Shown here: positions 3,942 to 26,360 of the stretch, one piece after another
Layout of the letters: every line of letters starts with the position of its first letter
How positions within the stretch are numbered: position 1 is the first letter of the stretch
Assembly (NCBI GenBank): GCA_000708835.1
Contig: DF237273.1
Coordinates: 1-64,000 of the forward strand
DNA length: 64,000 nucleotides
Direction: 5' to 3'
Origin: Klebsormidium nitens
Taxonomy: Eukaryota > Plantae > Klebsormidiophyceae
The notes under the pieces: model-generated
The model's input: only the letters and a program-made list of their open reading frames with translations
Databases searched by the model: none
What the model was told of the DNA's origin: nothing
Program-made: the position numbers and the translations under genes

Positions 3942-4615
3942 TTATTCCTCTATTACTCATTACCCACCGTCTCAAGTTCCATTCTCTTTGTACATTTGTC
4001 ATGTGGTGATGGAGGCTTTGCAAGAGGTTCCATATTCAAATAATCAATGGGTAATAGAGTAATAGGGTAACAGAGATGTGTGCTTGAGGCTTCTTCATGG
4101 GTACAGTCATGTGTGTGTGTGTGTGTTATAAGATAATGAAGGGGTAATAAGCTATTTGGTACTCAACGACTTCAGGAAGGTTTGTCTTTCTTGCTTTCTC
4201 GGGTCAATATGTGCCCCTCCTCATCCCTTCTCACCACCAACATATGACAGCTGGAGCAAGGGTAGAATCATGATGGAGCGATGCTGCTGATCTCCTGTAT
4301 TACTCGTTACTCTATTACCACTGTCTCAAGTTCCATTCTCTTTTGTACATTTGTCATGTGGTGATGGGCTTTAGAAGAGGTTCCATATTCAAATAATCAA
4401 TGGGTAATAGAGTAATAGAGTAATAGAGATGTGTGCTTGAGGCTTCTTCATGGGTACAGTCATGTGTGTGTGTGTGTGTGTTATAAGGTAATGAAGGGGT
4501 AATAAGCTATTTGGTACTCAACGACTTTAGGAAGATTTGACTTTCTTGCTTTCTCGAGTCAAACAATGTGCCCCTCCCCATCCCTTCTCACTACCCACTC
4601 ATGATGATTCGAGCA
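3942..4615. repeat. Tandem ~355-bp duplication; each copy has an inverted repeat of GTAATAG(A) iterons and a (GT)n tract
   Basis: 3942-~4260 aligns with 4298-~4615. TATTACTCGTTACTCTATTACC (4298-4319) pairs with GGTAATAGAGTAATAGAGTAATA (4403-4425); the first copy has the same arrangement at 3942-3965 and 4049-4070. Confidence 0.93.
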
Positions 4616-7333
4616 AAACGAGCACTTTTGCTCTGCGGCGGATTGTCGCGACTCTTTTGACTCTTTTGAAGCATCAACAAGCTCCTGAAGAGCTTTGGAA
4701 TCTGTCATCCATGGCCCTTCTTCATCCTCGGTATAGTCGAGCCGTTGCCAGGTGTCTACCCATTCCACAGTCGAGCTCATAAGCTTGCCTTTATGGAGAG
4801 CCTCGCAGATAGCGCCCTGTGGGGCAAACCACCATCCCTTATGGGTTCGAACCCCCTGAATGGAGCGTGCCTGCGGTCGCATATTGAAAACGGCATTGAG
4901 AGAGCGCATCAAGACGTTGACGCCGGTATGGCGGTCTTCTTTGATGTCCATCTGATGCAGGAGCGTGTCATAAGTCCGCTTGATGTCTGTCGATGCTACC
5001 CACGTCTCCAAAGAAGGGTGAAAGCACCCGTTCTCGAGCAGCGCTTGCATCATATTGACGTGGGGTGGAATGGAGTGTTCTTTAAGGCCTTCCCCCCAAG
5101 TTGTGACTGGCATCTTCTGAGAATTCCAATTGGATATTTCAATGGATGATAGATATCGATGGAGGTGATATGCGGTCTCGGGTTTCTCCAACTGCTCCAC
5201 GAGCTCATCAAAGTATTGCTTGTTTCCCATCTTGGCATCTGAGACTTGCTGGCAAGAGTATCGGCGATCGTCTGCCTCTCGTTTGACAGACCAAAAGTTG
5301 TTTGTGGTGAAGACGATATTGCTTTTGTCATCCACGCTGATAGGGTCTTGGCCTTTGCGCTCCATACACGTCGTCTCCTGAGTGATTAGGGACTTTATCC
5401 GGTCGTTCATCCGATACGCTCCGCCCCAACTGCCACATTCGTCCAACACAATCAACAACCTGTTGGCTGCTAGTGAGTTGAATTTGCCAATGATCTTTTC
5501 GATTTCGTTGCAATACAAATAATATATGGCGCCAAGGATCATCCGTCCAAAAAAGTCCCACAATACAGACTTTCCGCACCCTTGCCCACTGCGAAACACG
5601 AGAGCGACACCAATCTTCCTCCAAGGCTTCTGAACGGCGTGCGCCATCCAACGAAGGTTGTAGTCAAACCGCTCCTTTGAGCCATCGCACAAGATGTTGC
5701 GGAGGTGCCACATGAGCTTTGGCATCTGTTCCTCGCACTTCACGAGCTCCGACTCCGTCAATCTGCGGTCGAGCGGTTTGAATTTCAGCCCGGAGAACAG
5801 ATTGAAATGTCGTGATGACCCCTTTGACGGGTCCGGCTCGAATACGATTCGATCGTATTCCCGGCGTTTAGGACTGCTCTCCCAGAATCTGGCAACCTCC
5901 TTGCTTTTTCCAGGTAGGCTCTGGAGTTGGAAATTCCCGCAGACCTCCAAAAAGTTGCGGCCGGACCGAGCGATGGTCTCCTGGGGCTGAAGCTGCCCAT
6001 TCTCGTCTCTCGAGTAGATCATTTCCAGATAAACAGCCTTTGTCGAGCGGACAACGGCAAAGTAATGGTTCATGATACGCAAATCGAGATCGAGCAAGTC
6101 CAGTTTTGCTTTCCTTGTTCGTACGTCATCTTCCTTTTTCTTCCTTTTCTCGTCGCTTTCATCCGTGGACGGCTCGAAGGGAAGAATGTAGCTCTCGCAA
6201 GTCTTGAAAAGTTCCCCTTCCGCTCTCAGAGGCAAACACTCGGGCCAAAAGTGAATGCCCAGCAGTTGCTTTGGTCGATCAATGCACCCTGGACTGAGAC
6301 AGCGGTACACAAGAATGCATCCGTTGCTCATGATGCTAAACTGGTTCGAATCGTGTTGATGACCATTTAAGCAAGTTCGCGTGCCGTTTGTTTTGAACTT
6401 TAGGATCTGCCACCCATTAGGGGTCATTTCTCCAACACCGTTGAACGTGCCGGTGTCGTCTTGCACCTTATCACGCAGCAACCTCTTGATCTCTTGGAGC
6501 GCGCCTTCCAATCCGGGCAGGGCCTCCGTGTTTTGCACATTTCCAAGAGGTGCTGATGACATCGATGTTGAGTTCTCAATAACAGGTGAGGTGGCATTCG
6601 AGTCATTCTCACGTGACATGTGCTTATTTGATGTCTCAATCTTGTCTGTTGCGGTCTGTTGAACGTGATCGTTGAGAAACTTTGCAAGCCAGAGAGGCAT
6701 GTCATGGCATGCATCAAAGCTTGGAGGCCCGTTGAGCCATTGGTATGTTGCAAGCTTTCCCTGATCCTTGACGTAGCTTGCGGGGTGAGCATAAACGACT
6801 CCTCCACCAGCTCGACCGTCAATTCTATAGACAGTGTTGCCAACCTTGATGGTCTCAAAGTTACGGGTGCATTTGAGGCCAGGCGAAGTCGCCTTGAAGT
6901 AGAAATGAAGCCCGCCAGAACCTGTTTGAGCTTTGAGTGTTTGGGGCTCGCCATGTTCCTTAACAAGACGGTTCCAGAGCTCGATTCCCGGCTTTTTGTT
7001 ATCTTTGTTGGACACATCAATATCAATCACAAACACCCGACTGGGACGTGTCAGGATCGCGACTCCATTGGCGTCCTTCCTCTGCCGCATTGCTTCATCG
7101 ATCGAATATTTCCACAATTCGGGCGTCGTGATGTGTGCGTACTTGTGTGGAAAGTCGGCACCTTTCGTACCCTCTTTTTCATTCCAGAACATGCGCACGG
7201 GAATTGCATAGAGCCCAACATTGGAGAGTCGTTGAATCTCGTCTGCAATGGCTCGGGGCCCTACGGGCCTGGGGACATGAGCGGCCTGAGGTTCTGAGAG
7301 GCTGGCCTGGGCGTCTGCCATTTCTTTGTACAT
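4559..7333 (-). CDS. Primase-polymerase (bifunctional Prim-Pol-like AEP) + Zn-binding linker + D5/NrS-1-like SF3 helicase, 924 aa, intronless
   Basis: VFVIDIDV and QTGSGGLHFYF primase motifs; C..GHQH...RCLSPGC; Walker A FRSGQGCGKS; Walker B IVLDEC; motif C FTTNN; ADDRRY. Confidence 0.9.
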   Translation of the reverse strand: MYKEMADAQASLSEPQAAHVPRPVGPRAIADEIQRLSNVGLYAIPVRMFWNEKEGTKGADFPHKYAHITTPELWKYSIDEAMRQRKDANGVAILTRPSRVFVIDIDVSNKDNKKPGIELWNRLVKEHGEPQTLKAQTGSGGLHFYFKATSPGLKCTRNFETIKVGNTVYRIDGRAGGGVVYAHPASYVKDQGKLATYQWLNGPPSFDACHDMPLWLAKFLNDHVQQTATDKIETSNKHMSRENDSNATSPVIENSTSMSSAPLGNVQNTEALPGLEGALQEIKRLLRDKVQDDTGTFNGVGEMTPNGWQILKFKTNGTRTCLNGHQHDSNQFSIMSNGCILVYRCLSPGCIDRPKQLLGIHFWPECLPLRAEGELFKTCESYILPFEPSTDESDEKRKKKEDDVRTRKAKLDLLDLDLRIMNHYFAVVRSTKAVYLEMIYSRDENGQLQPQETIARSGRNFLEVCGNFQLQSLPGKSKEVARFWESSPKRREYDRIVFEPDPSKGSSRHFNLFSGLKFKPLDRRLTESELVKCEEQMPKLMWHLRNILCDGSKERFDYNLRWMAHAVQKPWRKIGVALVFRSGQGCGKSVLWDFFGRMILGAIYYLYCNEIEKIIGKFNSLAANRLLIVLDECGSWGGAYRMNDRIKSLITQETTCMERKGQDPISVDDKSNIVFTTNNFWSVKREADDRRYSCQQVSDAKMGNKQYFDELVEQLEKPETAYHLHRYLSSIEISNWNSQKMPVTTWGEGLKEHSIPPHVNMMQALLENGCFHPSLETWVASTDIKRTYDTLLHQMDIKEDRHTGVNVLMRSLNAVFNMRPQARSIQGVRTHKGWWFAPQGAICEALHKGKLMSSTVEWVDTWQRLDYTEDEEGPWMTDSKALQELVDASKESKESRQSAAEQKCSFCSNHHEWVVRRDGEGHIV

Positions 7334-7369
7334 TCTGACAAGATTTTAAATGAGGCGTTTCAAACGCGC

Positions 7370-7774
7370 GTGCGTTCGGTCTCGGGTCGCGCTGATTTTC
7401 TTACCATGATATTAGTACTCAGCATGGAGTCGCATAATGAAAGCGCTTTGAATGATTGCTGCACTTGCAAAGCGTGCGAAACTATCAAGCAATTTTATGA
7501 AAAGCATCCGGATGCTCGAAAGACTTACACAAAAAGGTACTACTACAAACATAGAGATGCAATCTTATTGGCCCAAGCCTTTGAGCGCTACAAGAACGGG
7601 CATGCATGTCAACAGAAGACTTTAAAGCGCCTTTTCGATGCCGGCTTTCCGGTGAAGATTCCGTTTAATGCATGGCAGCACGATGATCATCAAATGGCGT
7701 CTTTAGACACGTCAGATGTGATCAAAGTGCCCTCGCTCCATTTGGGCGCATTCACAGGGATCCAAGTGTCTTGA
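7370..7774 (+). CDS. Small basic hypothetical protein of the viral type (true start may be a downstream ATG)
   Basis: Intronless ORF between the primase and recombinase genes with CCTCKAC and K/Y/R-rich KQFYEKHPDARKTYTKRYYYKHRDAIL. Confidence 0.5.
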   Translation: MRSVSGRADFLTMILVLSMESHNESALNDCCTCKACETIKQFYEKHPDARKTYTKRYYYKHRDAILLAQAFERYKNGHACQQKTLKRLFDAGFPVKIPFNAWQHDDHQMASLDTSDVIKVPSLHLGAFTGIQVS

Positions 7775-7810
7775 AGGCAGCTTCCCGGTGGCGAGCAAAT
7801 TGTAAACCGT

Positions 7811-8866
7811 TCAAAACTGTATCCGAGTTCCATCAGGATTGAATTTCTTCTCATATGTCCGCTGTGCCATAGCTGCCGTGTGCAACATGCTCCGCGCGAG
7901 GTCGTCGCGCTCGGCAATGCTCGGAGCATCTTTAAAGAGGTTGCTGACGCAAATTTTGCGAAGGAGACACGAACCCACACTCGCGTCCTTAAAAAGGCCC
8001 GTGCTACAAAACTTGGTCAGATAGTTTCGACTCATCGGTTTGTCGGGCGACTTAATCTGAGACAAGAGGTATTTTCTGGGAAAGACCTGAAGGCTTTCGG
8101 CAATGACATTGTTGCATCGGGTCGACATGTCTATCGAAGTGGGTCCGTGGTGCTTGACGGTCTTATAATCGTTCAATACCAAACGAAACTGATCTTGTGC
8201 AATCTCTAAGAGATAGTTTCCGGAACCGGACATGATCTCACGTACCTCGGCCGTTTTGATGTCCTTCAAGCGCACAATGGGGCAATCGCTGTAGTCATTG
8301 CGGATTGCTGGTTGATAGCTATAAAGGCACAGTATGAGGTGGCGAAAAAGCACAAATTTGTCCTCATCGGTCAATTCTTCGGGCCTCTTGTGCAGGATCT
8401 TACGGTTCACGTGCCTTTGCAGCTCCACTCGGCGATCACTTATCTGATTGAGTGTCTTCCAATTGGCCGCTTCCCGCTCTGTCAGCTGCTGGGGAGGAGG
8501 CTTCGCATCTTCCATGAGCTTACGAACCTCTATGTACCGCTTGTAATAGGCATCATAGAGCTGTTTATCGTCGGAGAATGCTTTGCGCACTAGAACCAAG
8601 AGCGGATTGATCCCAGTGGCCTGCATTGACAGCTTTGTGGAATATGTTTCCTGAAAGTACTTGATGATTCCGTCGGCATCCTTGATCCAATCGAAGCTGG
8701 TGAAGTCTCGTTGTCTTTTGAACCCTTGAAACAAGCGCACGACATGCTTCATATATTGTTGAATCGTCAGGTCCTTTCGAGTACCATCCTCGAACGCCGA
8801 GCGCAGCAGCCTTTCTCCCTGGGTTACGGTGATTATGCGTCTCGTGGTTTCAACAGACCCTTGCAT
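7811..8866 (-). CDS. Tyrosine recombinase/integrase, 351 aa
   Basis: Catalytic residues in the expected order: PAIRNDY (R), DYKTVKHHG (K), CLLRKI (HxxR-like), LARSMLHT (H/W), AQRTY (Y). Confidence 0.88.
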   Translation of the reverse strand: MQGSVETTRRIITVTQGERLLRSAFEDGTRKDLTIQQYMKHVVRLFQGFKRQRDFTSFDWIKDADGIIKYFQETYSTKLSMQATGINPLLVLVRKAFSDDKQLYDAYYKRYIEVRKLMEDAKPPPQQLTEREAANWKTLNQISDRRVELQRHVNRKILHKRPEELTDEDKFVLFRHLILCLYSYQPAIRNDYSDCPIVRLKDIKTAEVREIMSGSGNYLLEIAQDQFRLVLNDYKTVKHHGPTSIDMSTRCNNVIAESLQVFPRKYLLSQIKSPDKPMSRNYLTKFCSTGLFKDASVGSCLLRKICVSNLFKDAPSIAERDDLARSMLHTAAMAQRTYEKKFNPDGTRIQF

Positions 8867-9133
8867 CTTTCACAATTTCTGGATACTCTCAAGAAAATTT
8901 TTGACCACCTCAAAGTCCCCAATTTCAGATACCATGAATGACTACGTTCAAAATCAATCTCACGAAATTGAGATGGGTAGCAGCTTTTAACGGTAAAAAC
9001 GGTTATGAGTGCGTGTAAAAGCCGCCTAAAAAGCGAGATGGCCACTCAATTTTCAGCTGAAATTATACTGGCGCTGGATACTGTGACTGGAAGAATACAA
9101 AAATGAAAGATGGTGACTTTTGGCGCATTCATG

Positions 9134-9682: not shown

Positions 9683-9923
9683 ACCTTGCTAAGGTTTCAA
9701 TAAAAAAGTGGATAATCAAAGCGTTCTTCGAATTATGGTGTGACGCCCGCCCTAAATCGAGCGAGCGCCAAAAAGCCTGTTGTGGTAAGTCTCATGGGCA
9801 CCGCCCTTCAAAAGTTCATGACCGAGTTTTGAGTACAATCTGGCAGATTGTGTCGTCAAAAGTAGGATCCGAGCATGCACCGGAGCCCTCAATCGGAATG
9901 CCCACAATCTCCACCGTAAAGCC

Positions 9924-10300
9924 TCACGGCCCGTAGTGACCCCTGCCTCGATTGATGCGATGCACTCTCGCCGCCATCCCCGACCCAGTGCGAACTGGTG
10001 CAAAAACGGTATGGTGTTTGATATCGCGTCCGACAAATCCGAGAGGAGTCTCACAATCCGCCAGGACAAATATGCCAATAGCGTAGGTGTCATACCCGTT
10101 CCCCGAATGCTTGCGAAGCACGAGCTCCTGGCTGGGTCGAAGCTTGCGAACGAGGTCTCGACGGCCTTCAAAGCTGACTCCAACGGCTCGAAATAGCATG
10201 CGTCCATCTGGAAGCTGCTCCATTGGAGGGTTGGCCCAAGGTTGGCCGGTGTATTCAGCCAAGCTCTCTCCTAAGTATGTATGCGACCCGCGAGCTTGAA
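9924..10300 (-). CDS. HIRAN-domain exon, probably part of a larger spliced gene
   Basis: FRAVGVSFEGRRDLVRKLRPSQELVLRKHSGNGYDTYAIGIF...LGFVGR matches the HIRAN pattern (VAGV.F...L.REP.N.YD.NAI.V...GYVP). Candidate AG acceptors lie near 10270-10297. Confidence 0.75.
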
Positions 10301-10439
10301 GGATGAACAACTTCGAGCTATGTGCTAGATTATCACACCGACAAAGCGCTCGGCATGGTTGAGGGGGCGCCCGTCGACTTGCACCATCGTGATATACAAA
10401 GAAGCCTTCACAACAACGCAAATTGACGGCTCCGAGCCG

Positions 10440-11235
10440 TGCCGACCAGTCAAAACTTGCCTCCATAATATAAGCATATCAACTTCGAAAGGGACAATTT
10501 TTGACTCGCAGCGAAGGCCATCTTCGAAGCATTGTGAGTAATGGCGCCGACCACTCAAAAGTTGCCTCGGAGTGTAAGCTTATGAGCTTTCAAAGGCTTA
10601 ACTTTTGACTCGCATGCAAATACGGCCATTCCACTACCAACGTGAGAAACGTTGTAAGTGATGGCGCCGACCAGTCAAAAGTTGCCTCGTAGTATAAGCA
10701 TGTGAGCATTCAAAGGCTTAACTTTTGACTCGCATGCACGTACGGCCATCTCGCCCATGACCTTTGTTATACGTTGTAAGTGATGGCGCTGACCGGTCAA
10801 AACCCGCCTCGTAGTATAAGCATGTGAGCATTCAAAGGCTTAACTTTTGACTCGCATGCACGTATGGCCAGTCCACCCACAAGCTTTGGAAACATTGTAA
10901 GTGATGGCGCGGGCAGTCAAAAGTTGCCTCGTAGTATAAGCATGTGCGCATTTTAAAGGCTGAAGTTTTGACTTGCATGCACGTACGGCCATCTTGCTCA
11001 TGATCTTTGACATACTATACGGTGTAAGTGATGGCGCGGACCAGTCAAAATCTGCCTCGTAGTATAAGCATGTGAGCATTCAAAGGCTGAAGTTTTGACT
11101 TGCATGCACGTAAGACCATTCGATGAAATCAAGATATCTTTAACAATGGTTGAAGTCATAGCGCCGGGAGTCAAGATCTGCTTCGCAGTATACTGAGGCA
11201 TACCAGCCTCCAATGGTACAGCTTTTGACTCTGTC
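10440..11235 (-). repeat. Array 2 of the ~120-bp repeat family (7 units; ~97-bp near-identical repeat plus 22-29-nt variable spacers)
   Basis: Arms at about 10448, 10553, 10673, 10795, 10915, 11043 and 11169; reverse orientation relative to array 1. Confidence 0.95.
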
Positions 11236-11959
11236 ACTACGCAAGACAGAATTCATGCTGAAGTCGATGATCAAAGTGACTCGCAAAACAAGGACGCCAA
11301 TTCTGCCCTCATAATGAATAACATTAAGAATTTTTGAGAGCTTTTGCGACAACTCTACTTGTTCTGGCCACCATCAGTAGCTACTCCTACGGCCGTATAA
11401 CACAACCCTCTACCGGTAGTGTCGCCTCGTACTCATCAAGCCGACCGTACTTCTCTCGCACTTCCTGCCATAGCAACGGCTTGAAGAGGTGAGGCCGGCC
11501 AGCTACAAACTTCCCGTTCGACTTCTTCGGAGCGACGTGGTTGAGCCCGAGGCCTACGTGGAGAACCTTCTTGATGGCGTTGCGCTTCATCGTCGCCGTC
11601 AGACTCTCAGCCGTCTGGTCCATCCCGTAAAAGTCGCGAACGAAGCTGAGCCGTTCAGGCGTTGGCCCGAGCATCGTGTCGTGAATCGCTTGCAATGCAT
11701 CCTCCTCGACCGCAAACCCGTCCTCTTTGCACCTTTCCACCTCCCCCGGCTGGCAGCCCAACAATTCTGCTGAAAGCATCACCGCAAAGGGAATCCGACG
11801 CGACATGTCGCCCCTGGCAGCGACGTACTCCTTCGTGACGCCCTCCATGTCCCCTTCCCTCAGGGCTCTCGTGAAGTCGTCCATGATGTCGGAGAAAGGG
11901 GTCGTTTGGAACCTGTCCAGGAGAGCCTTTGCAGAGTCATTAACTCCATACATCTTATG

Positions 11960-12055
11960 CCTTATGCAAGAGACACTTCTTTTTAAGGCAGGGAGAAGGC
12001 AGGGCAATGCAAGAGACACTTCTTTTCAAGCAGGGAGAAGGCAGGGCAAAGCTGA
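11960..12055. repeat. Short tandem duplication (AGAGACACTTCTTTT..GCAGGGAGAAGGCAGGGCAA x2) in a predicted intron
   Basis: Two ~42-bp copies visible directly. Confidence 0.85.
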
Positions 12056-13389
12056 AGCAAGAACGACGTGCAAAGAGGCAATGCCCAGAAGCAACGATTG
12101 TTTGGAGCAAGGAGACGATCTCGCATTTGATTCGATAGAAGAAAGAACAGAGCAAAGCATAACCGAATCATCTAAGCTGATCAACCTAGCCGCAACTTGC
12201 TTGGATCTTCATAGTGTTTCCCGCTGACCTGATGTAGTTCTGGAACGGGACGAGCTCCTTTCCGCAGTGCACCACCTCGTAATTGTGGTCGACTCGACGG
12301 GGATCGACCTTGTGCACATTGCGGATGCACTCGTAGATGTGTCTCTGCCGCACCTCCACCTCGTCCAGGGTGTCAATTTCATCCTTCTCAAGGAGTTTGC
12401 GGTACGCCTCGTCATCGACCACATACCTGGCCCGCCAAACATCGTCGGCGAGGTCCTTGTCATCGTCGTTGCCAACTCTGCGCACCTGAACAGAGGGGGC
12501 TTCGTCGTCCAGATATACCTCATGGACGACGAAGCCCTGCTTGATGAGGTCAGCGCGCAAAAGCTCTCCGTAGTTCCGGAAGCTGTTGGCGACCGTGAGG
12601 ATGTTGTTCGCGTACAGGACGCAGCCGGGGGAGTTCCTGTCGCAGACCGGCCGCGTTCCCGAGGGGGCCAGCAGGAAGTCGAGATGCTCGGTGCTGCCAA
12701 GCAGCTTGGCGAGCTCGCGATCTTCGTCTTCGATCGCGCAGAAAACGTCTTCCACGGTCGAGGGAAGCGACTGGGGGCCCGCGCCTTCCTTCACATAGAT
12801 CGTGAAGTTGGTGACAGTGCGATCGCGGAAGAGCTGCTGGAGGAACGTCTCGACGGTTGGCCCCCGCTCGAAGCTGTTCATGGCGAAAGCAATGAGCTTG
12901 TCAAAGTGGGGCCGCTCTCACGAGATGCCGGGGCCGATCACGGGCGAGGAGGCGCACAGGTCTGCCGTCATGTGAGTGTCGGGATCGGTAACCGCCAGCT
13001 CGAGAGCGTCTTTTGCCGCTTTTGTCGTCGGTTTGGAGTAGAAGAACTTTCCCGACTTGGCAGTCCGGCCGTCGCTCGGGAAGCGCTGCTTGAAGGCTTC
13101 CTCGAGCTTCAGGACGTACGTCTTGCTAGACGAGGGCGCCTGCAAGGAGAAAAAGTGATGCCCCATTGGAACCAAAGTTGCGACCAGATTCTGAAACTTC
13201 TACAACGCAGTTCGAAGTAGAGGGGTAAGGCTCGAGTGTGATCGGAACGTGTAAAAGTGGAGCGCCCAAGAGTGCAGATGTATGTAACCTGCGTGTTTTC
13301 AATATTATTTGCTGACCACGGATCTCTCGGGTCAGTCTGTTATGAATCTCGTAATAACTAAGTTGACAGTCCTCACGTTCATTTTCTGA

Positions 13390-14100
13390 GAGCGTGATTC
13401 AAACTTGGGTCGGGGCGACAAGAAATTTCTCCTGCTGACGCAGCAGTCTATGGTTGATCCATTAGAAAAAGGATCGCGTGCTGCCACGTCAGCGGATTCT
13501 ACCTCTTGAAGTTAGGGTGGCCGGGAAGAGCAGGGCAGTCTTGACGTTTGTGTTTTGAAAGCTTAAAGCAGATTCCGGTTGGGGCGACAAGAGATCTCCT
13601 TGCTTACACGACAATTTGAAACTGATTCCGTGCAGAAAGGAAACAGGCGGTGCCACGTCAGCTGACTCCAATTCTCGTTGATCTGGCCTGGAAGGGCAAG
13701 GCAGTCTTAACGTCCCATTCCACAGGCTGATCGATTCCAAAAAGATTCAATTGCTGCCACGTCAGGAGACTACAATCGAACTTCGATTCTAGCCCAGAAG
13801 ACTCCGGGGAAGGTTTAACGTATATGTTGAAGAGCTTGCAGGATAAACACGGTGAAAAGAAGCACGCCCGGACCAAAACGCCACGTCACCAAACTCCAGG
13901 TCATCTCTTATTCCGGTCGGGAAGCACTGAACAGATACGACGTTCCTTTTTGGAGCTTGACACAGATTTGGGTCGGGGTTTCAGAGCTTTCCTTCTGCTA
14001 ATGCGTCAGCTCAAGCAATTCGCCCGCCGTTTCAAGATAAGCAGAAAAAACGAAAAGAAGAGATCACCACGGACCAAGCACCGGCTGCCACGTCAAAGAC
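13390..14100. repeat. Degenerate intronic repeats carrying five co-oriented GCCACGTCA motifs
   Basis: GCCACGTCA at 13483, 13652, 13756, 13880 and 14087. The first two lie in ~169-bp related units that also share GGGGCGACAAGA and GGCAGTCTT.ACGT. Confidence 0.8.
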
Positions 14101-15014
14101 TTTGATTTCGTTCAAGGTCTGTACGCGAGCTACCAAACACGACGTTCGTTCCTGAAGCTTCAAAGTTGCGTCCAGGTGTGAAAGGGTTTTCTTACTGACG
14201 AACTCACTATGACGTGCTCGCCTCTCTGCAGGGACTCCATCGTCTCAGCAATGGCCGGGCCGTAGGGGTCCTTTTGGAACCGCTTGGTCGCCGGGATGTA
14301 CTTGATCGTGGCCTTCCGTTCACCCGGGTACACCCCGCGGTTGCGGATCGTGTGCAAGGCAGCTTCTGGCCGGACCATGTGCAGCCACTGCATGACCCGG
14401 GGGCTGCCGATGTTGGCGTCCATCCCGAGCACAATCTTGGCATGCCGCGTCACCCCTTCCAGCGCCAGAAAGACCATCTTCTTTCGGGCCATGACGTCCG
14501 AGTTCATGTTGGACAGGATCATGTCCATCTCGTCCATGATGACCACGTCAAAGCTGGCGGCCAGCCTGGGGAGGGAGTTTACGCAGACAACGACCCTGCC
14601 GTCGTCAATCCTTCCAGTCACATCGAGGTAGAGCGTCGCCTCGATGCCGCGCCGCGTCAGATCCTCCGCATATTTCCTGGCGAGTGTGACGTTTGCTGCG
14701 ACCATGACGAAGTTTGCAAACGGAAATCTTTGCAGCAGCCTCTCTAGCCAGTCGTTCCCCTCCTTCGATTTGCCAATGCCCTTGTTGGCCGACGTCAGGA
14801 TCGTTTTCCTGGCAGGGGAGTTGATGGAGAAGGGCGGATAGGGGCGCATGCCGTCCACCTTGACGTAGTCCTCCGTCCAGCCCGTGATTTGCCCCGTCTC
14901 CAAATGGAGCAGACGTGCGATTCCGCTGCAGAACGAGAGGGCACACGACACCTTATTTACAACTCTTTATGATCCAACGACCGTTCTAGCTCGAAGAAGA
15001 GGGATTCATAAACG

Positions 15015-15470
15015 GAAGGGATGGCCGGGCTTGGCTACAAGTCAAAAGTTCCGTCGTGAATACCTGGAATGCTTATACTCACAAGGGAGGTTTTGACTGG
15101 TTGACACTGTTAGTCGCAAAGGATAATCAAAGACGGAGTGGCGGGGCTTGGCTGTGAGTCAAAAAATCCGCCGTGGAAAGCTGCAATGATTATACTATGA
15201 GGGCAGGTTTTGACTGGTCGACGCCATTAGTCACAAAGTTTCACGAACAACAAGGGATTGGCCGAGCTTGACTACGAGTCAAAAGTTCCCCCGTGGAGAG
15301 CTGCAATGCTTATACTCTGAGAGGAAGTTTTGACTGGTCGGCATGTTGATCACAGAGGCTAGTCCCGAGACGAAAGGAATGGCCGGACTTAGGCTTCGAG
15401 TCGAAAGTTTAGCCGTCAGAAGCTGCTACCCTTATATCATGAGGGCAAGGCTTGACTGATTGACACACAA
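15015..15470 (+). repeat. Array 3 of the ~120-bp repeat family (4 units) inside intron 14926-15680
   Basis: Arms at about 15040, 15157, 15277 and 15399; antisense to the host primase-helicase transcript. Confidence 0.95.
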
Positions 15471-18293
15471 GTGGCGAACAGATCCTACATTCGACCCTGA
15501 GGTATCTTGCATCATCTCACGACGCTAGTGACGGAAGCTGATTTGAAAGCATAAACTACGGCGACTCGGTTCCGATCTCGACCTTCCAGCCTGGGGCCTC
15601 CGAAAACGTACTTCATGGGACCGTTGCTCGGAAGGTGGGAAATCAAATCAAAGTGATTCCCGTTGCCCGTGATGGCTCACCTGCAGGTGGCGGAGTGGCA
15701 CTTGTAGAATGCCACCCCCGGCCGGGACCGGCGGTAGAGCAGGTACGTGTTGTTGTTGCCCGGGGACGTGTGCGGACGGCCAGCGAGGAGACATGTGGGC
15801 TCCGGCACGTCGAAGTGGACCGTGAAGACCCCCGAGCCGACGACGTGAACGCGCGCGAGCGTAGCGCCGGGGTGCTCCTGCTGATAGTACTCCACCAGCA
15901 CGCGCTGCTCCTGCTCGCCCAGGTCCGCCCGATTCTGCCCGCCATCTTCCGGGAGGCCCGCATCTCTCACGCGCATCGTGGGGCGCTGCGGCCGCGACAA
16001 CGTGGGGGCGTGCTGCTGGAGGTACGCCTCGAGGCGCGCCGCGTCTAGCTGGGCGCAGCACTGCAGCTCCGCAGCCGAATAAAGCCCCGCGAGGTGGTCC
16101 ACGATGAGCTCCGAGCTGCCCTCGCTCGGCTCGAGGACGCGGTCGCTCCCCTTTTTGCTCGACCACAGCATACGCCAATTCTGGAACTTGGAGTAGACCG
16201 TGCCGTCCCAGATCAGCTTCGGGCGGCCCCGCTGATCCTCCGTCCAGACGAACTCGGCGCTGCGCGCCAGATGGGGGGGCGGGTTCTTCTGGAAGTGGTC
16301 GAACGCTTTTGCAAACAGGCTCCGCGCTCGGCTATCCTCCAGGTAAAACCCCTTGAGCACCCCGTGGACGCTGTACCTGAACCCCCCCGCGACTGCCCCA
16401 TGCGCCGTGCTCTCCTCGAACCGGACCGCCTCTCCCAACACTCCCAGAACCGCCTCCAGAAACCCATCCCTCAGCCGCTCAAAGTGCTGCTTCCGCTCAG
16501 CAAAATCTGCATCCCGCGCCCCGACCGCCTCCTCGGAGTCGCCCGCGCACACGCTCAAAGGCACGTAGTAGTCCAGGCCGAAGTAGAGCAGCGAAGGTGT
16601 CTCTTCGAGCAGACACTCGTACCGGTGCTTCCTCTGGCCCCTGAGGCGTGCGCAGTAAGCCAGCAGCGCAGGGACGTCCGGGAAGCTGGTGAACATCTTC
16701 GCAGCGGAATCTCGCGCGGAGTCAGCGGCGACGACGATGCCGTGGCCGTGGAGGGTCTTCCAAGCCACGGCGAGATCCTTGGGGCCCCGGCCGGTCGGAC
16801 TCTCCTTGCTCTTGAACCACTGCTGACCGTAGACCGCCGTCGTGTGCCTCTGCAGAGTTGGACAAATGCCATCAGGAAAATGTGCGGCTGATCGTGCGAC
16901 TGATAGAGCTTCGGCTTTCAAGTGTGGTCCTCAAGCTCAGTGAGCCCGTGCAGAGTTGCAACGACAGATCTAAGTCAAACTCTCGGACTCAGATTGTCAA
17001 CCAGGGGAGCGATAGTCGTCCGAAAGCAGGGATGGTATGCACAAGTGCTGCAAGAGAGACCCGTGTCTGCCCGTGCTTAATCCTCAGGCAGCGAGGTATT
17101 TCTCGGAGGAAATGAAGCATCTCCTTTCTATGCCGCTTTCATTTAGTGTTCTCGCAGCCGAGAAAAGGTCGATGTACACCAAACTCGAGTGCTCAAAAGA
17201 CCATGTGGCCGCTTTAGACCAAAGGTAGATTACCGATTCGAAGTCGCGCACGCTCTCACCAGCAGACTGCCAACGGAGTCTTGATCTCTGGTTGGAGCTA
17301 GCTCGGTCGTATCCTGCCTGGCCTCCAACCCCATTTCCTGCACGCAAACGCAGACCTTTATGAGCACGTGCGCAAAAGACGGACCTGGAGATCCTCTCGT
17401 CCGCGGCGTCGAAACTAGACAACGCCCAGCAGTACAAGCGTGCAACTTTCCGATTGCGGACGATGTGATGCAAAAGCAAGGGCGGCCATCACACCTGGCA
17501 GCGCGCTGACCAGCAGCCAGGCTGATCTTGATTTCATCTGGCATGCTTGCCGAATTTAACGACCAGATCCGATCGGTCTGGTCGACATTTGGACGAACAG
17601 CGCGACTTCTTGTCGCACGCAAGACCTTTGGAATAGCTTCCAACATCATTCAGTAAGAGTGATCCTCTCTGAGAGTTGGGACATGAAATCCGGATGCTTA
17701 CCTGTACAATCGGAGCCCCGCCCACAGGATGATGCTCGGCAAGCTCCCCGGCGGGAGGCTCCGGGTTCTCCTCGGGCGCATCCTGACAATAGACTCTTGC
17801 CGCGTGAAGTTCCTGGGCACATGCACATGATGACATGATTGAAAGAGTGGAGCCTGCAAAAACCCTAATCATGAAGATATTGTTTGTGAACCAACTTTCA
17901 GAAGAGGAGAAGCGGGCGCGCGCCTCCGCGAATCGCGCTCCAGAGGCCCGGCACTTCCTACTAGACATGAGAACCGGGTTCTGAAGTGCTCGAGTTGAAC
18001 CAGAGGTGTTGCTTCTCACCCCTCACTGATTGCACACACGCAGCTGGCACCGGACTTCTCTTTCGAAGGCAATATTACACGTGTGGCAGCGCCCGAGTTG
18101 TAATGCAGCTTACCGTTTCGCACGGGCTTCCGGTCCTCTAGAACCGGAGGGCGCTGGGGAGCTCTCCCTGCTCGAGGAGGCCCTTTTTCTGTCCGCGACC
18201 TCCTGCACACAAGAACCAGGCGCTCGCTCGATTCAAGAAGGGTGTCACACAGGCTTAGGGGGAACGCTTTGGCACTCCAAGGGCATCGGAATC

Positions 18294-18756
18294 ATGGGCT
18301 ACGACACCAGATCATGGCCGCTTCGCCTTTTCTCGCTCTCTGACCGCCGAAGAGTGCGCGATTTTGGAAGCAGTGCACGACCACCGCCACGAGGACGACC
18401 TGGAGCTACCTTATGCGGCTAACGAGGAGCGCCCGGTCACCATCGAGCGAGAGGTGATCAAGCCCTTGTACGTGGGCGAGGGCTTCGACTACCTCACGAG
18501 AAAGTACCCCTCCTTCTATTGCCAGTGGACGGTCTCACCCAACAAGCGCGCTCTACTTTGGGACAAGGGGGAGAAGTTTTACAGTTATGTGGGCTGGCTC
18601 GAGTACCTCATCTCCCACATTTTTGAGGTATGGGGGTTACAGCTCAGCGGGACCATCACATGGAAGGGGACGAATCGGGGCGACAGGGGTTCGATCACGG
18701 TCGAGGGCAACAAGATCATGGTCAAGATGCCTCTGGCCCGAGTGGACTCACCGTAG
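18294..18756 (+). pseudogene. Phage/giant-virus-type small conserved protein with an early frameshift
   Basis: MGYDTR-(frameshift at ~18312)-HGRFAFSRSLT...YCQWTV...WDKGEKFYSYVGWLEYLISHIF..WGLQLSGTITWKG..RGDRGSITVEGN resembles a family I recall from phages and nucleocytoviruses (MGY.T.F.G.F, WDGGEKFY.Y..WL.YLI); not searched. Confidence 0.65.
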
Positions 18757-18894: not shown

Positions 18895-19215
18895 CTCGCC
18901 GCCAGCAGTCAAAAGTTCCTCTCAGTATAAGCACGCTCTTCGTAAACAGGCCCCGAGTTTTGACTCCGAGATGAGGTCAACCATCCTTGTTTGAGAAGCT
19001 TGCGATTGATGGCGCCGCCCGGCAGTCAAAAGTTCCTTTCACAATAAGCACGTTTATTGCACAAGGCCCAAGGTTTTTGACTCTGACATGAGACCGCCAG
19101 ACTATCCCACTCAAGCGTTTGAACAAAAGCGCAGGTCAGTCAAAACTTGCCTCTCAGTCTAAGCATATCAGCTTTCAGTGGCGCACCTTTTGACTTGCAG
19201 GCAAGTCCGTCCATC
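18895..19215 (-). repeat. Array 4 of the ~120-bp repeat family (3 units)
   Basis: Arms at about 18907, 19024 and 19138. Confidence 0.92.
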
Positions 19216-19222
19216 CTGTCCA

Positions 19223-22200
19223 CTACTGTTGAAGCTTGAGCCGGGACCAACGAGGAGCGTATGCGACCCAGAACTCGGTGCTCACCCGACTGATAGTCTG
19301 GGGTCGCAGACGCGGCACGATCATGCACAGATTTGTAAACTCCTCCCCAAAGTCCGATTCGTCGAAGCCGCCATCGTCTTCGGGTTCTAGCGGACCGTCG
19401 GAGCTAGCGCTGGCGTCAGGCACGAGCACATCGCCCCCCGGGTGCTGCACCTCCTCCTCCGACCCAGCAGCACCGCTCCGCCTTGCCGAAACGCTGCCGT
19501 TCTCACCCGAGGACTCCGATGATGGGAGCAGCACCCGACGGCGCCGCCTGGTTTGTGGAGAGGGGGTTGCCTCATCACAAACCCGCCGCTTTCGGAGCTG
19601 CTGATGAGCCTGGGCAGCCGCCCACCGCCCGTTGCTTGCGGAAGAACCCTGCGAAGGGCTGCCCTCCTCGGCTGAGCACTTCGACCGGAGAGGCAGGAGA
19701 CGGGCTCCCGGCTTGAAGCCCTGAGCCTGAAGCTGAGAAACGTCCAACTCGGAGTCGGATTCCCTGGCGGCACGAAACCTGCCTTGCGCAACCACCGGAT
19801 TCTCTTCGTCTTGACTTCCGTCGTCGATCATGAGGCGATCTTGGGATGTCTCCACGTCCCCAGATTCGCCCACGCTCTCAAACTCCGCCCCCTCAATGTC
19901 CTCGCCTTCTTCTTCAGATCCTGATCGCCCAAACCCGGACTCACTGGCCGCACTCGTCGCCGACCGCTGGTTGCCGCCGCTTTTCTGGACGAAGGATGGG
20001 CCTTTTGTCAGAAATTAATCAAGAGACGTCTTCTGCAAATCAGCGCCGAGGGCATCCCGTGGAAGCAAGGCAGGCCGTCATCACGAATTGTTGACGTGGT
20101 CCAAAAGCTTCAGATAGAACCTCAAATGTTTCTTGCAGCGCGTGGACTCTGACCATCTGGAGCCAACCCAATCTGAAAAGGTCTCGCTAAAGAGACATGC
20201 GAGGAACAACGAACGAGTTCAACACATTCCTTGCTGGGAACGCATCACAACCACTCAAAATCTCAGCAACACTAGCATTGCCGAATCGCAGTTCTGGCCC
20301 TTGAAGCAGATCTCAAACGAACCGCTTTCGAGATGCGTACAACTTATACAGCTTGAACGAGCTCAGATCAATCCATAGTTCTCACCTCTGCTGTGGCGCC
20401 GCAACCCTTGACTGCAGCGCCAGCTGTCTCTCCCAATGAAGTGGACAGCCGGTCCTCTTCGTCTGCTCTGTTGTCTTCCACCTTGAAAGACGATGAGTGA
20501 CATTCGATCAGAACATGCGGAGCACATTCTTACCACAATTTCAATAAGCATACAACCAGCGTATGCAAACCAGTGTCGCAGCACTCCACCCTACTCACAG
20601 TCTTAAAATACGAAGTGCAATGCAAAGCAAACGAACGTCGCCAATGCGCAACAGATGATCAATGCAAAAGGCTGGCCCTCACATATCATCCAAGGTGATA
20701 ATGAAGACCTACTTTGGCACAATTTGCAGCACGACATTTTTCGAAAGCCAGCCCCTCGAGTCGCCTTAAAGACTCGGAATGCTTTGACTTCGTTAGTCGA
20801 GACGAAATGCATCCGTGGCAGCTTCCGATCGTGGTGCTAGAGCAAAGATACACATCTTACCAGGGCAGTCAGGAGGCCGTCTTCTATCCTGTCCAAATGA
20901 CTGAGCTCTCTCTGGAGCAATTCCGCGTCCGCCCTCGGCATCTCTTCCGGGAACTCGGGCCTTTCGATGCCCCCTGTCACCACGCGGTCAGATGCTCGAG
21001 AGGCAATGCCTCCCTTCGAATCTGCAGGGCTGGGGTCCACCTGGAAAATGGAGAGGTGAACGGGTCAACTTACACGCATGAGCAGGTGCTCTGAGGAGTC
21101 ACCGCGCAGCTTTCTCGTTGGCACAGTTGTGGCAAAACTACTGTCCCTATCAATTGACTTGCAAAAACGCGATACCCATGTTTCCTGCAACAGCGATGAG
21201 TGGCCTGGGACGAGCATTGGAAACGTCTTCGATCACTGGATCATGGGCGCCTTAACTGTTATGCGACAAGTGTTAAGTGCTTACCTGCTCGTAAAGCTTC
21301 CCATTCTTCTGCCACTTCTCAAACTCCTCAGGAACAGCGCGCTGACCACATGCCGGCCGCCAGCTCTGTTCGACGTCCTGCACAACGGCCTCTCTTCTTA
21401 CCATCAGGTTTCGTCTGTGGGTTACGAGTTCAGATGACGCTACCATTCCAAAAGCAGAAAGAAGTGATGCGACCGCAGAACGGTCTGACAGGCTCAAGCA
21501 AAGCTTTGAAGCAAAGCACTGCACTCGTTGTTGTAAACTATCACAGAGCCGTGCTACGAGTTGTTGAGTCAGCATGGGCTCGTCCTCACCTCTCGAGAGG
21601 GCAAATTCACAAGCTGACGGCAAGGGCTGACATCAGGTGCAGGTGCGTCCTTATTCTCGTTTCCCTGTGATTGGAGCGCTGGCCCAGGATTGCTTTCGAC
21701 GCCGCCGATCAGCAGAAGCTTTGCTGCAAAATGAATGCCAATGATGGACAAGCGAGCCAAACCGACAGTTCAGGTCATGAAAGAAGCAGATGGCGTGCAC
21801 GCCTCTGTTGACGGACCACACCTTGTCAATAATAATAAAGAAACCCACTCTCAGCACTTTAAGGCCATGTGCAATGTGTGGTCCAGCAGACTGTCAGACC
21901 GGCTATCCGGTCACACTCTTTTCGGCCAAACAGAAGAAGGGCAGCTACAAGCAGCCCGCACCTATTTGATAGAGTGACTCACCATTGAGGAGCTTGCTCT
22001 TGGGGGTCGCATCCCACCTGAAGTTGTCATGCTGATATCCGTCGCATGCTGTGGAAGATAGGCAAACATATTGAGTTGGCACGTGAGTAGGCAAGGTTTG
22101 GTTTCAAGCTCGACAGGATTCTCTTTGAGAGACATCGTAGAGGTGGGGTTTCAGGATTAGGAGAGACCAAGCAAAGTACAAGCAGCAGAACAGTCCATTG

Positions 22201-24175
22201 GGAGTAAGATTGTGCAATGAGTCCGGGATCAACAAGCAAGAGTCAGCTTGCTCTTTGCCCGAGAAAACCTCACCATGCCTACTCCCGAGCTCTGCCTCCT
22301 CGTCAAGCGCCCGCGCTAGCTCTTTCTTCAACTTGAAAGCTTCACAGACACGTGCCCACTCTGGAAAAAAGGCACGATGCACATGTCTTTGCGATAAGCG
22401 CTTACATGCAGGAGAGTCGTTGGCTTGTCGACGACAGCCAGCATGCCTGCTCAGTCTCAAGATTTGCATTTGCAAACTTGCATGGTTGGACCAGGCAAGC
22501 TCTTTGCCAAATGATTGACGGCGCGCCGACACAGCGGTAGCCGCATAGAACTCACCTGCCCGGGCCTTCTCAATCTGGAAGCAGCGAGTTCTGACTGGGC
22601 GATGCGCACCGCAGAAGCACTTGAGGTTGCCCCCTTCCTTGCCTCCACGCAGCGCATAGGTCGCGGGGTTGCTGCATTCTCCGCAAAGGAGACCGTGTGG
22701 AACTGGAAGGGAAAGCACAAACAGTCGAAACCAGTTCGGAAAGCGTCACGCATGTAAAGTCCTGGTTGATTCATGCGTACCTTCTCATATATCCCCGGCC
22801 ATACACACAAGAGTCTTGTACAGTTGCAAACTCCTAGACCTAAGGCTCAGATGCCCTCCCCCAAAGCGCTGACTCCGACTCCCGCAAGGCCCTATTAAGG
22901 TGCTTCATCAAGATGGCCCTATTAAGGTGCTGCTGCTCACCCTTGGCCCCAAAGAGGTAGCTGGCCAGTAGCTCCTTTGCTTTCCTCGCTTTCCTGGAAG
23001 CGCCACCAGCTGGGGGGCGGGCCTGGCTCGTTGCCGCTGGGCTCGCGGCCGCCGGGCTTGCGGCAGTCCTGTGAGCTCCACGGGAGGCGCTTGCTGGTCG
23101 CTGCAGCCCCTCCATGTGGGCCTGCCTGATCGACGTCAAGACCTTCTCGAAGCCCTCTTGCAGGCCCGCGTCTGCAGTGCCCGCCAGCGCCTGGAGACCA
23201 GCCATCGCGGCATGCAGGCTCCCATCCCAGGCAGCCTTCGACCAGAGGAGGCCTGCAGACCCGAGCTCCTCTCGAGCGCGCTGGCACAGGGTTCCCGCCA
23301 CCTTCCGGAAGATGCGGTGGCCTCTCTTGGAGTAGGTGAGGAAGCCTCTGGCCGCGCTCGCCACGAGCGCTCTGATGGCCGCCGGCGGGAGAGCATCATC
23401 GCGGGGTGGGCCGCATGTGTCCTGCAAGGAAGCCAAGGGGGCACGATGCGTCAGACCTCATGTCATCTCGAAGGAGCGAGCAGACACTTCTTCATCGGGT
23501 GAAAGCCAGTGCACAACTCTGATGAGAAGTGCGGTTGAGGGCAGAATCGGGCCAAGGCCATTCAACCCATCATCCTGAGCATTGAGACCGACCAGTCAAA
23601 ACTTTCCCTTAAAGTATAAGCATTCCAGATTTTCACGACAAAACTTTTGACTCCCGCCCTGGCCCTCATCCTAACAGTACTGTAAGGGTTAGCGATGGGG
23701 CCAGTCAAATTTTGCCCCATGAATATAAGCATTCCAACCTTTGAAGGCAGGACTTTTGACTCGCATAGCTCCCAAGCCAATCCAAACCGGGATCCTGAAC
23801 AAGCGGGAGCGCCCACCAGTCAAAACTTCCCTGAAGAGTATAAGCATTCCAGACTTTCACGACAGAATTTTTGACTCCCGCCCTGGCCCACGCGTTGTGA
23901 GAGGTAGCGCTTGGGGCCGTCAAAATGTGCTCCATGAATATAAGCATTCCGGACTTTCAGGCAAAGTTTTTGACTTGCAGTCAACCTGGCCATTTATCCC
24001 ATGATCCTGAAGATCTTGTTAGCGGCATTCAAGACGCTGGCCTTACCCCAGTCCTCGCAGGACCAGCTTTTATCTCCGCGCCACTGTTCGCGCCGTAAAC
24101 CACCTCATGCATGGGGTGGGGCGGGGGGGTGCTCGAGTTGGGTGCGGCAGCAGATGAGCGCGTTGCTCCACTTCC
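19223..24175 (-). other. Run of exon-like segments of one or more uncharacterised spliced genes of the element
   Basis: Minus-strand AG/GT-bounded open segments near 24175-24047, 23425-22941, 22703-22557 (Cys motif), 21725-21589 (2A-like), ~21420-21290, 21040-20862, 20480-20390 and ~19990-19223 (acidic/basic low complexity). Connectivity is not established. Confidence 0.45.
23585..23997 (-). repeat. Array 5 of the ~120-bp repeat family (4 units, alternating dimer structure)
   Basis: Arms at about 23594, 23703, 23818 and 23918; unit 1 resembles unit 3 and unit 2 resembles unit 4. A GG|GTAAGG donor lies upstream at ~24046. Confidence 0.93.
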
Positions 24176-24610: not shown

Positions 24611-26360
24611 CATGTATTTTAGCTCCAAAAGTTGGTCTGTTAGATATGAGCTTCGATTGGTCTGTTCCACATGACTTGACTGTGTGGACCTCGCACGCAT
24701 TGGATATTTGAGCCATCAGCGTTGATGAGCTCACCCCAATGGAAGGCGGTGATCCAGCAGGACGAGTGCCTTCCTTGCCATCAGACAGCGAGGCTGCCGG
24801 CCCCTGCTGTTGTGGTGTGGTACTCTCTGCCATCTGCTGCAAGAAATGACCAGACAACACTCAGAGATCCCTCAAGGTTTGAGGACACATTGACGAGCAG
24901 TTGCTGACAGGAGAGGATTGAGGTAGGCCATCAGCTGAGATCAGTCCTGCTTTCAAAGCACAATCCTGCGAGCCAGCAGGTGTGCAGGCCACCCAGCTGC
25001 AAAAGCCTATTAATTTGGGCGCAAGGGCTTACCTTGAAAGTTGAAGCGCAGCGCGGCTGTCCACACACTCTGCTGTCGTCGCTGAGCGATCAACCTGCAC
25101 CAAGGCCATGAAACAATATTTGCATGCATGCATGCGGGCATGCAAGATGTATTGTCGGATGTGCCAAGGCATTTAAATGTTGCTAATTGCCAACACAATT
25201 GCACGCTGATGCTGCTGATGCAATAGGCATGCCTGGTCATGCTTCAACATGCCCAACAGCCTCCTTTTGCGAGCGCACAAAATCCAGAAACATCCACTTG
25301 AAGCAGACAGCAAAGGCCCTCAGGATTGTCAGAAAGAATGAGAGGCAAGCTGCTCTTACCTGGGCATGCCCAGACGCCTGCGTGCACGACGCGCTGACCG
25401 CGGACTGCCAGCTTCTGAGCTCGCTCCAGAGCTCCCTCCAGAAATGGACCCTTTGCTGTTTGGAGAAATGAAGTTGGGGACCATTGCACCCCATCAAAAC
25501 AAGCTCATTGGGCTGCCAAAGGATGCCAGAGAGCGCCATCGGGTGCCGCCGCCAACTGTGCCAAGTCATCAATTGCTGAATCAATGCTGACTCAAAGAAG
25601 CATCTTCTTGCTTCTAGAAGGACACCTGGCAGCAAATCCAGCGTTTTCAAGCTCCGCCGCGGGGCGCCAAAAGACGCCAGACCTTGCCAATGCCACCTGT
25701 CCCAGATGACCTGGCTGCTGAGTCACCTCTGGAACTCTCTCGAACGAAGCTCAAGGAAAGATAATGCCAGCATTCAATCAGCACTTGAAAGCTGATACGC
25801 GCCGTGATGCGCCGCCATGACTCACTCACACGAGCTCAAGGCTGGAGAAAACTCTACGATCAACCCTGGCTGCTACCCTTGCTTTAAGAGCCTCAGTCTG
25901 TCTGCTTGAATATGCAGAGAACTCGGACTTCAACTGGGTGGGAACGGTCTGCAACAGCGTGGTAATGGTGAGCCGGCCCACAGAGCTAGGTGCCAGGCCC
26001 TAATGGGCAGATAGCCATGCGAAGGGCCGGCGGAGTTGGGTGGGAATGTAAGGGACACGTGCGCCAACTGTGCTGCTTGCGGCCGACTCTGGCACGCAGG
26101 CCTAACGGAGTGCGTCAGGGTTTCAAGGTTTTAAAATCCTGTGCACTGAGTCTTCAAGCGACCGTCGGCGACCGTCCCTAGCCGTCGCAGATTCATCGCA
26201 CGGCCGAAAACTGCTGTGCGCGAGCAATTTGCAGCCACAGGTTAGTTAGGTACCCGACCCACGATTGATCACTCCAGCGGGGTTACCAAGGTCCGGGATC
26301 AGCAGTGCGAAATTAAGTCTCAGGTCTCTCGTCTCCTTGTCATTTGTATTGCTTCAAGTG

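Follow-up and report, generated by a model that had tools for sequence, protein, structure and literature searches.

A spliced, multicopy primase-helicase gene family of viral kinship in Klebsormidium nitens, a candidate replicase of a nuclear mobile element

Fusions of an archaeo-eukaryotic primase (AEP) with a superfamily 2 (SF2) helicase are known from large DNA viruses, with mimivirus R8, pF1055L from African swine fever virus (ASFV), Ostreid herpesvirus 1 AAS00940 and the mriyavirus SF2_hel protein as examples in the covered parts of bioRxiv 2024.02.29.582850. Autonomous mobility of AEP-helicase replicases has been proposed for Polinton-like viruses (PLVs), as excerpts of two sources state (bioRxiv 10.64898/2026.10.13.758929; PMC11296320). 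In the portions of the literature covered, viral AEP-UL9 replicases occur only as intronless viral genes. Here we describe a gene on the minus strand of a 64,000-nucleotide stretch of the streptophyte alga Klebsormidium nitens (contig DF237273.1, positions 1 to 64,000, assembly GCA_000708835.1; hereafter the window), which joins an AEP primase, a Zn finger and a UL9-like SF2 helicase in a 21-exon transcript and belongs to a dispersed family. We put at about one in two the probability that this virus-derived family is the replicase of a capsid-less, nucleus-resident mobile element.

AEP-SF2 fusions as such have precedents, but a spliced, multicopy form that carries a 2A-like peptide was met in no publication covered. 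The literature covered gave no account of such a family, with the limit that Figure S5 of PMC5294986 and the bioRxiv supplements lie outside that coverage and could list some loci. PMC12846837 contained no term matching the family, and methylated viral genes in K. nitens are mentioned in the part of PMC12344493 that was covered.

Gene structure and domains of the putative replicase

The core of the gene comprises four exons (16849-15681, 14925-14208, 13139-12229 and 11912-11387), separated by GT-AG introns of 755, 1068 and 316 nt. Joined, they measure 3324 nt, or 1107 codons and a stop, with one internal stop, against 26 and 21 stops in the two alternative frames. An earlier reading of the sequence alone (the original prediction) had proposed these four exons, 1108 codons with the stop included, and their junctions; of the latter, EHVI|APSSSK and NYIR|FQTT were seen as contig joints and in P0003, the protein of a K. 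subtile transcript.

The full transcript, running from ~25,540 to ~11,150, was built from spliced contigs of public runs, mapped to 10.3-26.3 kb (four runs, four studies) and to 20.5-28.4 kb (four runs, three studies). No run is recorded as RNA, and the runs were taken as cDNA since their contigs skip GT-AG introns. Nineteen of the 20 introns are present as contig joints with GT-AG ends. The remaining intron, 15680-14926, corresponds to the predicted junction TC|SG and is not among the joints listed; it is backed by a loose contig end at 14930, which translates as the end of a paralogue's Zn finger, and by gene model P0013. The joint 22702-22941 was seen at a looser setting only and may derive from a paralogue. 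That this very copy is transcribed and spliced follows from contig pieces listed with zero differing letters, which cover its exons between 25537 and 11144. The only annotation here, KFL_003240030 (P0012), is identical to the last 392 residues.

The reading frame spans ~1,960 codons overall, of which the four core exons make up the 3' 56%, and encodes in order an N-terminal Cys/His protein, a 2A-like peptide, an acidic linker, the AEP primase, the Zn finger and the UL9-like SF2 helicase. Exons 1-2 (~25540-25360 and 25094-25033, within 25033..25560) form a 5' leader defined by joints and by a contig end at 25537. Exons 3-8, also defined by joints (24836-24735, 24178-24047, 23421-22941, 22702-22556, 22360-22274 and 22048-21983), encode an Ala-rich helical region, a CxxC-x18-CxxH motif and a coiled region; this N-terminal protein has no family match (Pfam; best Atlas score 0.76). 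Exon 9 (21723-21590) holds the 2A-like (StopGo) peptide KLLLIGGVESNPG|P at 21680..21721, residues ~339-352 of the frame. An acidic, Ser-rich linker follows in exons 10-13 (21377-21285, 21040-20861, 20481-20386 and 19984-19286; joints and translation), and a low-complexity linker in exons 14-17 (18826-18752, 18202-18114, 17812-17702 and 17337-17260), whose joints occur in all four runs. Two of the upstream exons that the original prediction had listed as candidates, 18202-18114 and 18826-18752, proved exact, and the third had been drawn too long (its span is 17812-17702). That prediction had overlooked another 14 exons upstream, the 2A-like peptide and one of three lesions. Exon 18 encodes the AEP primase-polymerase with its C-terminal Zn finger, exon 19 helicase motifs I-III (ANKGIGKS, DEMD, MDAN), exon 20 motifs IV-VI and a downstream region, and exon 21 a C-terminal helical region and the stop, with contigs of the 3' untranslated region extending to ~11144.

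The AEP exon has no Pfam match, and a family profile search with the AEP region matches human PrimPol. A structure model of the exon (predicted local distance difference test, pLDDT, 87.7) adopts an RRM-like AEP fold; in Foldseek its top ten matches are human PrimPol (best E 1.4e-11), followed by poxvirus D5/E5 and herpesvirus primases. The three AEP motifs are conserved across alignment A6, with D in 47/48 and D or E in 47/48 rows at motif I (DxD/E), S in 48/48 and H in 47/47 at motif II (SxH), and D in 47/47 at motif III (hD). Among the Zn-finger ligands that follow, H360 is found in 41/41 rows, C384 in 41/41 and C389 in 44/44, the first Cys lying outside the tally; PF03121, the UL52-type Zn finger, matches paralogue P0004 only, below the cut-off. 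The nearest AEP match outside the family is the environmental protein P0041, which has AEP and PriCT-2 (E 2.7e-8).

The helicase exon scores 48.8 bits against PF02399 (cut-off 20; E 3.9e-13), the helicase motifs I-VI are in order and align with those of viral relatives, and the best match in the PDB by sequence is herpes simplex virus 1 (HSV-1) UL9 (E 1.4e-23). For P0047, an environmental relative, a fold search with a model of low confidence (pLDDT 54.7, and below 50 in its C-terminal part) also puts UL9 first, with proteins of algal and amoebal giant viruses leading among the viral models. Against the UL9 profile, the Klebsormidium proteins have no sequence match past position 223 of 820. 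The AEP/PrimPol and UL9-like SF2 assignments made from sequence are thus upheld by profile, PDB and fold matches.

The 2A-like peptide (KLLLIGGVESNPGP, 21721-21680, minus strand; core LLLIGGVESNPGP) has an equivalent at the same position in P0001, P0002, P0016 and P0022, making five family members in all. In common with the 2A/StopGo peptides that RNA viruses and non-LTR retrotransposons carry, as described in parts of PMC3708506 and PMC12338488, it has a Leu-rich run followed by (V/I)ESNPGP; unlike them, it carries Gly or Cys in place of Asp, and its setting is a DNA replicase rather than a retroelement or RNA virus. The canonical class A motif is GD(V/I)ExNPGP, and the motif by itself is insufficient for skipping, according to the covered portion of PMC3708506. 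In the supplement of PMC12338488, as far as covered, Klebsormidium LLRGGVESNPGP appears twice, predicted as class A with activity given as N/A. The peptide of the replicase frame is predicted from its sequence to have StopGo activity. The scan for [ED]xNPG also matched at 39621, an unrelated place in the window, and within the helicase region of P0005.

A broken, transcribed copy and its relatives

The window copy is transcribed, spliced and broken. The frame from the first in-frame ATG, 24833, is open for 842 codons and ends at a TAG at 17300, and that of the replicase is open from 18140 on, which places a one-base frame shift inside 18140-17300; a 1031-nt contig agrees to the base with the exon structure across this linker region. 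A GGC codon at 16579-16577 (Gly, in LYFGLD) stands where 47 of 48 aligned rows have Asp, the window copy being the sole row without the motif I Asp. Lastly, a TGA at 12920-12918 interrupts exon 20 at a position that is Arg in both P0003 and P0013. The TGA is spanned by a run contig with zero differences, and the Gly codon is likewise covered. Because a transcript is present despite frameshift, loss of the catalytic Asp and nonsense codon, we regard the copy as a transcribed pseudogene. The original prediction had noted the Gly and TGA codons and suspected a dead copy, and with three lesions the case is stronger than it stated. An intact product from this copy could comprise the N-terminal 842 codons at most. 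We considered and rejected programmed frameshifting in the linker: a heptamer of the X XXY YYZ type is absent from the linker exons, and the alternative splice sites that would change the frame are all weak. A minor frame-changing isoform may exist, as the exclusion extends to the joints listed.

The family comprises 15 K. nitens gene models on 15 contigs, 31-89% identical to the window core, together with the K. subtile transcript and ~30 metagenomic fragments. The original prediction had suggested looking for intact paralogues, and one such is P0013 (KFL_003870130), which has intact motifs and carries Asp and Arg at the two point-lesion sites. Divergent run contigs match it at 76/76 residues, showing that an intact paralogue is transcribed. 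Between the window copy and the transcribed paralogue, 26 of the 40 differences listed are synonymous, compared with 29% expected (p 2e-6); judged by codon changes, the family is under purifying selection.

Six unspliced open reading frame (ORF) calls that are 35-46% identical (P0019, P0021, P0035, P0036, P0121 and P0122) stop one residue after the last Zn-finger Cys, the same point at which exon 18 ends in the window. This common end suggests an apparent shared intron position, and an intron shared among such divergent members points to spread at the DNA level following intron gain. The N-terminal part is 67% identical to that of P0016 over 268 aa, with the P0016 core only 40% identical; P0001 and P0002 are 76-79% identical in the AEP domain and only 33-35% near the 2A-like peptide. 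These unequal identities suggest exchange of modules.

In a helicase tree of 40 of 50 rows (simple model, unrooted, with approximate likelihood-ratio support, SH-aLRT, only; P0007, P0065, P0066, P0068, P0072, P0074, P0098, L010, L012 and L019 left off), the 11 Klebsormidium rows form one clade with SH-aLRT 100 and a stem of 1.18. The clade joins 15 environmental and viral rows (SH-aLRT 98), apart from mimivirus-type rows, and one of those 15 rows sits on a 548-kb contig bearing capsid and PolB genes of nucleocytoplasmic large DNA viruses (NCLDVs). The core is 20-25% identical to the viral clade, and a full-length profile match to the environmental relatives extends over 1036 columns at an hhalign probability of 100. 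The viral kinship that the original prediction had assumed is supported by this tree and by the relative on the NCLDV contig; the phylogeny it had called for places the family beside environmental and nucleocytovirus rows and names no donor, because the tree is unrooted and PLVs, mriyaviruses, herpesviruses and mirusviruses are not represented in it by named rows. Searches with P0013, P0047, alignment A2 and three ORFs described below (KDZ-like, intronic and recombinase) gave no related locus in the viral, metagenome or prokaryote genome collections to which each was put, blanks that likely reflect collections without Klebsormidium DNA.

Repeats, neighbouring genes and explanations for the family

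A paired inverted box, AGTCAAAA ... TTTTGACT, with a span of 58-59 bp, occurs in 29 units arranged in five arrays, and its strict matches number 18 compared with a shuffle mean of 0.01. By pattern scan, 11 units lie inside the gene's introns, four at 15029..15465 (minus strand), three at 18898..19206 (plus strand) and four at 23586..23984 (plus strand); seven flank the gene's 3' end (10438..11235, plus strand) and 11 lie upstream of a KDZ-like gene (29..1213, minus strand). None falls in an exon or past 24.1 kb of the window. The pattern was found 0 times in viral and metagenome contigs, likely for the reason just given. A hairpin, or the stem of a miniature inverted-repeat transposable element (MITE), was tried as a reading of the units and rejected, the five units folded showing no stable structure (z -1.8 to +1.0). 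Because the units do not fold as stable hairpins, paired binding sites are preferred. The 1068-nt intron holds a second repeat (13400-14100), with a TGACGTGGCA core in about six copies, and the intron 18751-18203 contains a virus-type antisense ORF with no assigned function (18259..18756, plus strand; phrog_38666, E 2.5e-16).

At the left of the window, an ORF of 597 aa with Cys/His clusters (2139..3932, plus strand) carries the motifs EDAACN, VDRFH and SEGINS, found by eye, and has no Pfam or PHROG match; by these motifs it is a putative KDZ-like transposase. It ends a gene, 1386-3932 (plus strand), that looks spliced. The repeat shared by the two genes would place the KDZ-like ORF in the same element as the replicase. 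Between the repeat arrays, 4559-9790 (minus strand) is an intronless block of lower GC with open frames, including an ORF of no assigned family (9688-9134), and it has the look of a nested PLV module for replication and integration that carries no capsid gene. Its assigned genes (4559..8869) encode a Prim-Pol with an SF3/D5-like helicase (7345-4559) and a tyrosine recombinase (8869-7811) (PF09250, PF19263), with Atlas matches of 0.98 to Preplasmiviricota clusters. GC at third codon positions (GC3) is 0.59-0.60 in this module versus 0.81 in the replicase core, and the module is probably a separate nested insert. A direct duplication of ~350 bp (4014-4207 and 4367-4562; region 3960-4562) lies at the 3' end common to the KDZ-like ORF and the Prim-Pol/SF3 gene and may mark an insertion end. 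A HIRAN-domain fragment, below cut-off, lies directly downstream of a paired-box array (9924-10478, minus strand).

Tandem repeats of ~110 bp lie at 24263-24600, in the first intron region, and others of ~200 bp at 26356-26750, upstream of the transcript start. Past ~27 kb the genes are mostly ordinary (ALG6/8, kinases, GNAT). At 28525-32243 (minus strand) there is a NACHT/AAA-like ORF whose N-terminal exon is short and coiled and which has a further domain downstream; it resembles Crinkler-like or STAND-type genes. At 62656-63558, a 61-nt inverted repeat with copies 781 nt apart encloses TTAGGG-containing 32-bp repeats, possibly a small non-autonomous element.

For a mobile element, we propose the following cycle. 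The host would splice the replicase mRNA, a step that is itself observed, and in intact copies ribosome skipping at NPG|P would release an N-terminal protein of ~350 aa and a replicase of ~1,600 aa. By analogy with UL9 and PrimPol, the replicase would bind the paired AGTCAAAA boxes, its SF2 motor would unwind the DNA and its AEP domain would prime synthesis; UL9 is dimeric at origins, according to the covered part of bioRxiv 2025.10.31.685793. The DNA, introns included, would then be copied by the host or by the replicase's own polymerase activity, as the shared intron suggests, and insertion of the copy would fall to a separate recombinase, for which the adjacent KDZ-like transposase is a possible candidate. 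A bolder version, which we think doubtful, makes the family a new class of self-synthesising giant DNA transposon: capsid-less, resident in a streptophyte alga, with a 21-exon 2A polyprotein mRNA for a giant-virus origin-binding primase-helicase, which would fire at arrays of paired AGTCAAAA boxes much as at the hr origins of baculoviruses, and with integration of the copies by a KDZ-type transposase encoded in the same repeat-marked block of >25 kb.

Several observations weigh against the mobile-element reading. No terminal repeats, element ends or target-site duplication were found in the window, although the left end may lie outside it, and a 12-mer inverted scan of 24.2-28 kb versus 1-11.4 kb gave three scattered matches; KDZ (Kyakuja, Dileera, Zisupton) transposons have defined termini and a target-site duplication of 7-8 bp, in the part of PMC12730594 covered. 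The giant-transposon replicase offered by the original prediction is plausible, with no ends found for it. The paired boxes may also belong to a satellite or MITE with no relation to the gene. Within the protein, the C-terminal 300 residues have no sequence match to the UL9 origin-binding domain, Gly or Cys interrupts the class A consensus of the 2A-like peptide, and the P0016 peptide ends in NPGW. At the level of the family, some of the 15 K. nitens models are incomplete and could be two parts of a single copy, none is a near-identical young copy, and the paralogous loci are known here from protein and gene models, the DNA neighbourhood having been read at the window. K. subtile P0003 is 96% identical to the window copy, nearer than any K. 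nitens paralogue, and because of this a stably inherited orthologue fits as well as a mobile copy.

That transcript, with Arg at the nonsense codon, suits a domesticated host family, in which an ancient capture from a giant virus gained introns and multiplied by ordinary duplication, intact copies help the alga to repair DNA, to reprime or to interfere with viruses, and the window copy was recently lost. We consider this possible, and clearly less probable than a mobile element. It accounts for the missing ends and young copies, and monophyly with a long stem, a host-like density of 20 introns, transcription across several studies and purifying selection all agree with it; it sits less easily with the many copies, often partial or broken models, the swapping of modules between subfamilies, a 2A-like peptide of virus or retroelement type, an intronic antisense ORF of virus type, and neighbours that are mobile-element genes rather than host genes. 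The original prediction's other suggestion, an endogenised viral gene with introns, holds as to viral kin and introns and is too narrow for one member of a dispersed, expressed family. Two further explanations fit worse than either the mobile-element reading or domestication. If copies had arrived within nucleocytovirus inserts and were decaying as scattered remnants of giant endogenous viral elements, the nucleocytovirus contig among the nearest outside relatives would be expected, and several inserts of giant viruses are present in K. nitens, their core genes occurring five or six times, as part of PMC5294986 reports. However, none of the 110 window ORFs of at least 128 aa matches capsid, PolB, packaging ATPase or viral late transcription factor (VLTF) families, a search that spliced or very divergent capsids could escape, and the intron apparently common to 40%-identical members, the excess of synonymous change and the single long-stemmed clade make such remnants improbable. 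Least probable of all is the replicase of an endogenous Polinton-like or mriyavirus-like virus with the adjoining tyrosine recombinase as integrase. AEP-SF2 fusions do occur in PLVs, with accompanying tyrosine recombinases (bioRxiv 10.64898/2026.10.13.758929), and in mriyaviruses (bioRxiv 2024.02.29.582850), on the covered portions of both, and the gene's 3' end is 2.5 kb away from a recombinase of Preplasmiviricota type; yet this recombinase adjoins its own intronless Prim-Pol/SF3 replicase, which differs in GC3, it has no paired-box units, and the window has no capsid gene within the limit just given.

Comparison with known systems

As a spliced, selected, transcribed and dispersed family, these genes would show a route by which, in an alga closely related to land plants, a giant-virus replication gene becomes a nuclear mobile element or a gene of the host. 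They offer a candidate origin sequence and partner for a class of viral primase-helicases that is otherwise unstudied, and probably also an example of a DNA replicase with a natural 2A peptide. Should only duplication of a domesticated gene be involved, the family would still be an undescribed capture of a viral gene by the plant lineage.

A bacterial phage system offers one parallel. RepA of N15-like linear-plasmid phages combines a primase, of another class, with a UL9-like helicase in one protein, and RepA of the N15-like Halomonas phage phiHAP-1 gave a weak tblastn match over the helicase (E 4e-4, 22% identity). With human PrimPol, the Klebsormidium protein shares the AEP fold, the motifs DxD/E, SxH and hD and a C-terminal Cys/His finger, at 17% identity, but cellular PrimPol has no helicase. 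HSV-1 UL9 resembles the helicase domain by sequence and, through the relative P0047, by fold; the match does not include the origin-binding C-terminal domain, and UL9 has no AEP domain (bioRxiv 2024.02.29.582850, in part). The PLV replicases and the proposed mobile AEP-SF3 insertion sequences, as far as their sources were covered, are likewise stand-alone primase-helicases that are multicopy, dispersed and found beside integration enzymes; in contrast to the AEP-SF3 elements, the Klebsormidium family has an SF2 helicase, is spliced by its host, resides in a cellular genome and has no capsid module in the window. The closest counterparts are the AEP-SF2 proteins of large DNA viruses, which have the same order of AEP, Zn finger, UL9-like SF2 helicase and C-terminal region over ~1,100 aa. 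Whereas each viral protein is encoded by a single intronless ORF, the Klebsormidium core is divided by three introns and preceded by 17 upstream exons.

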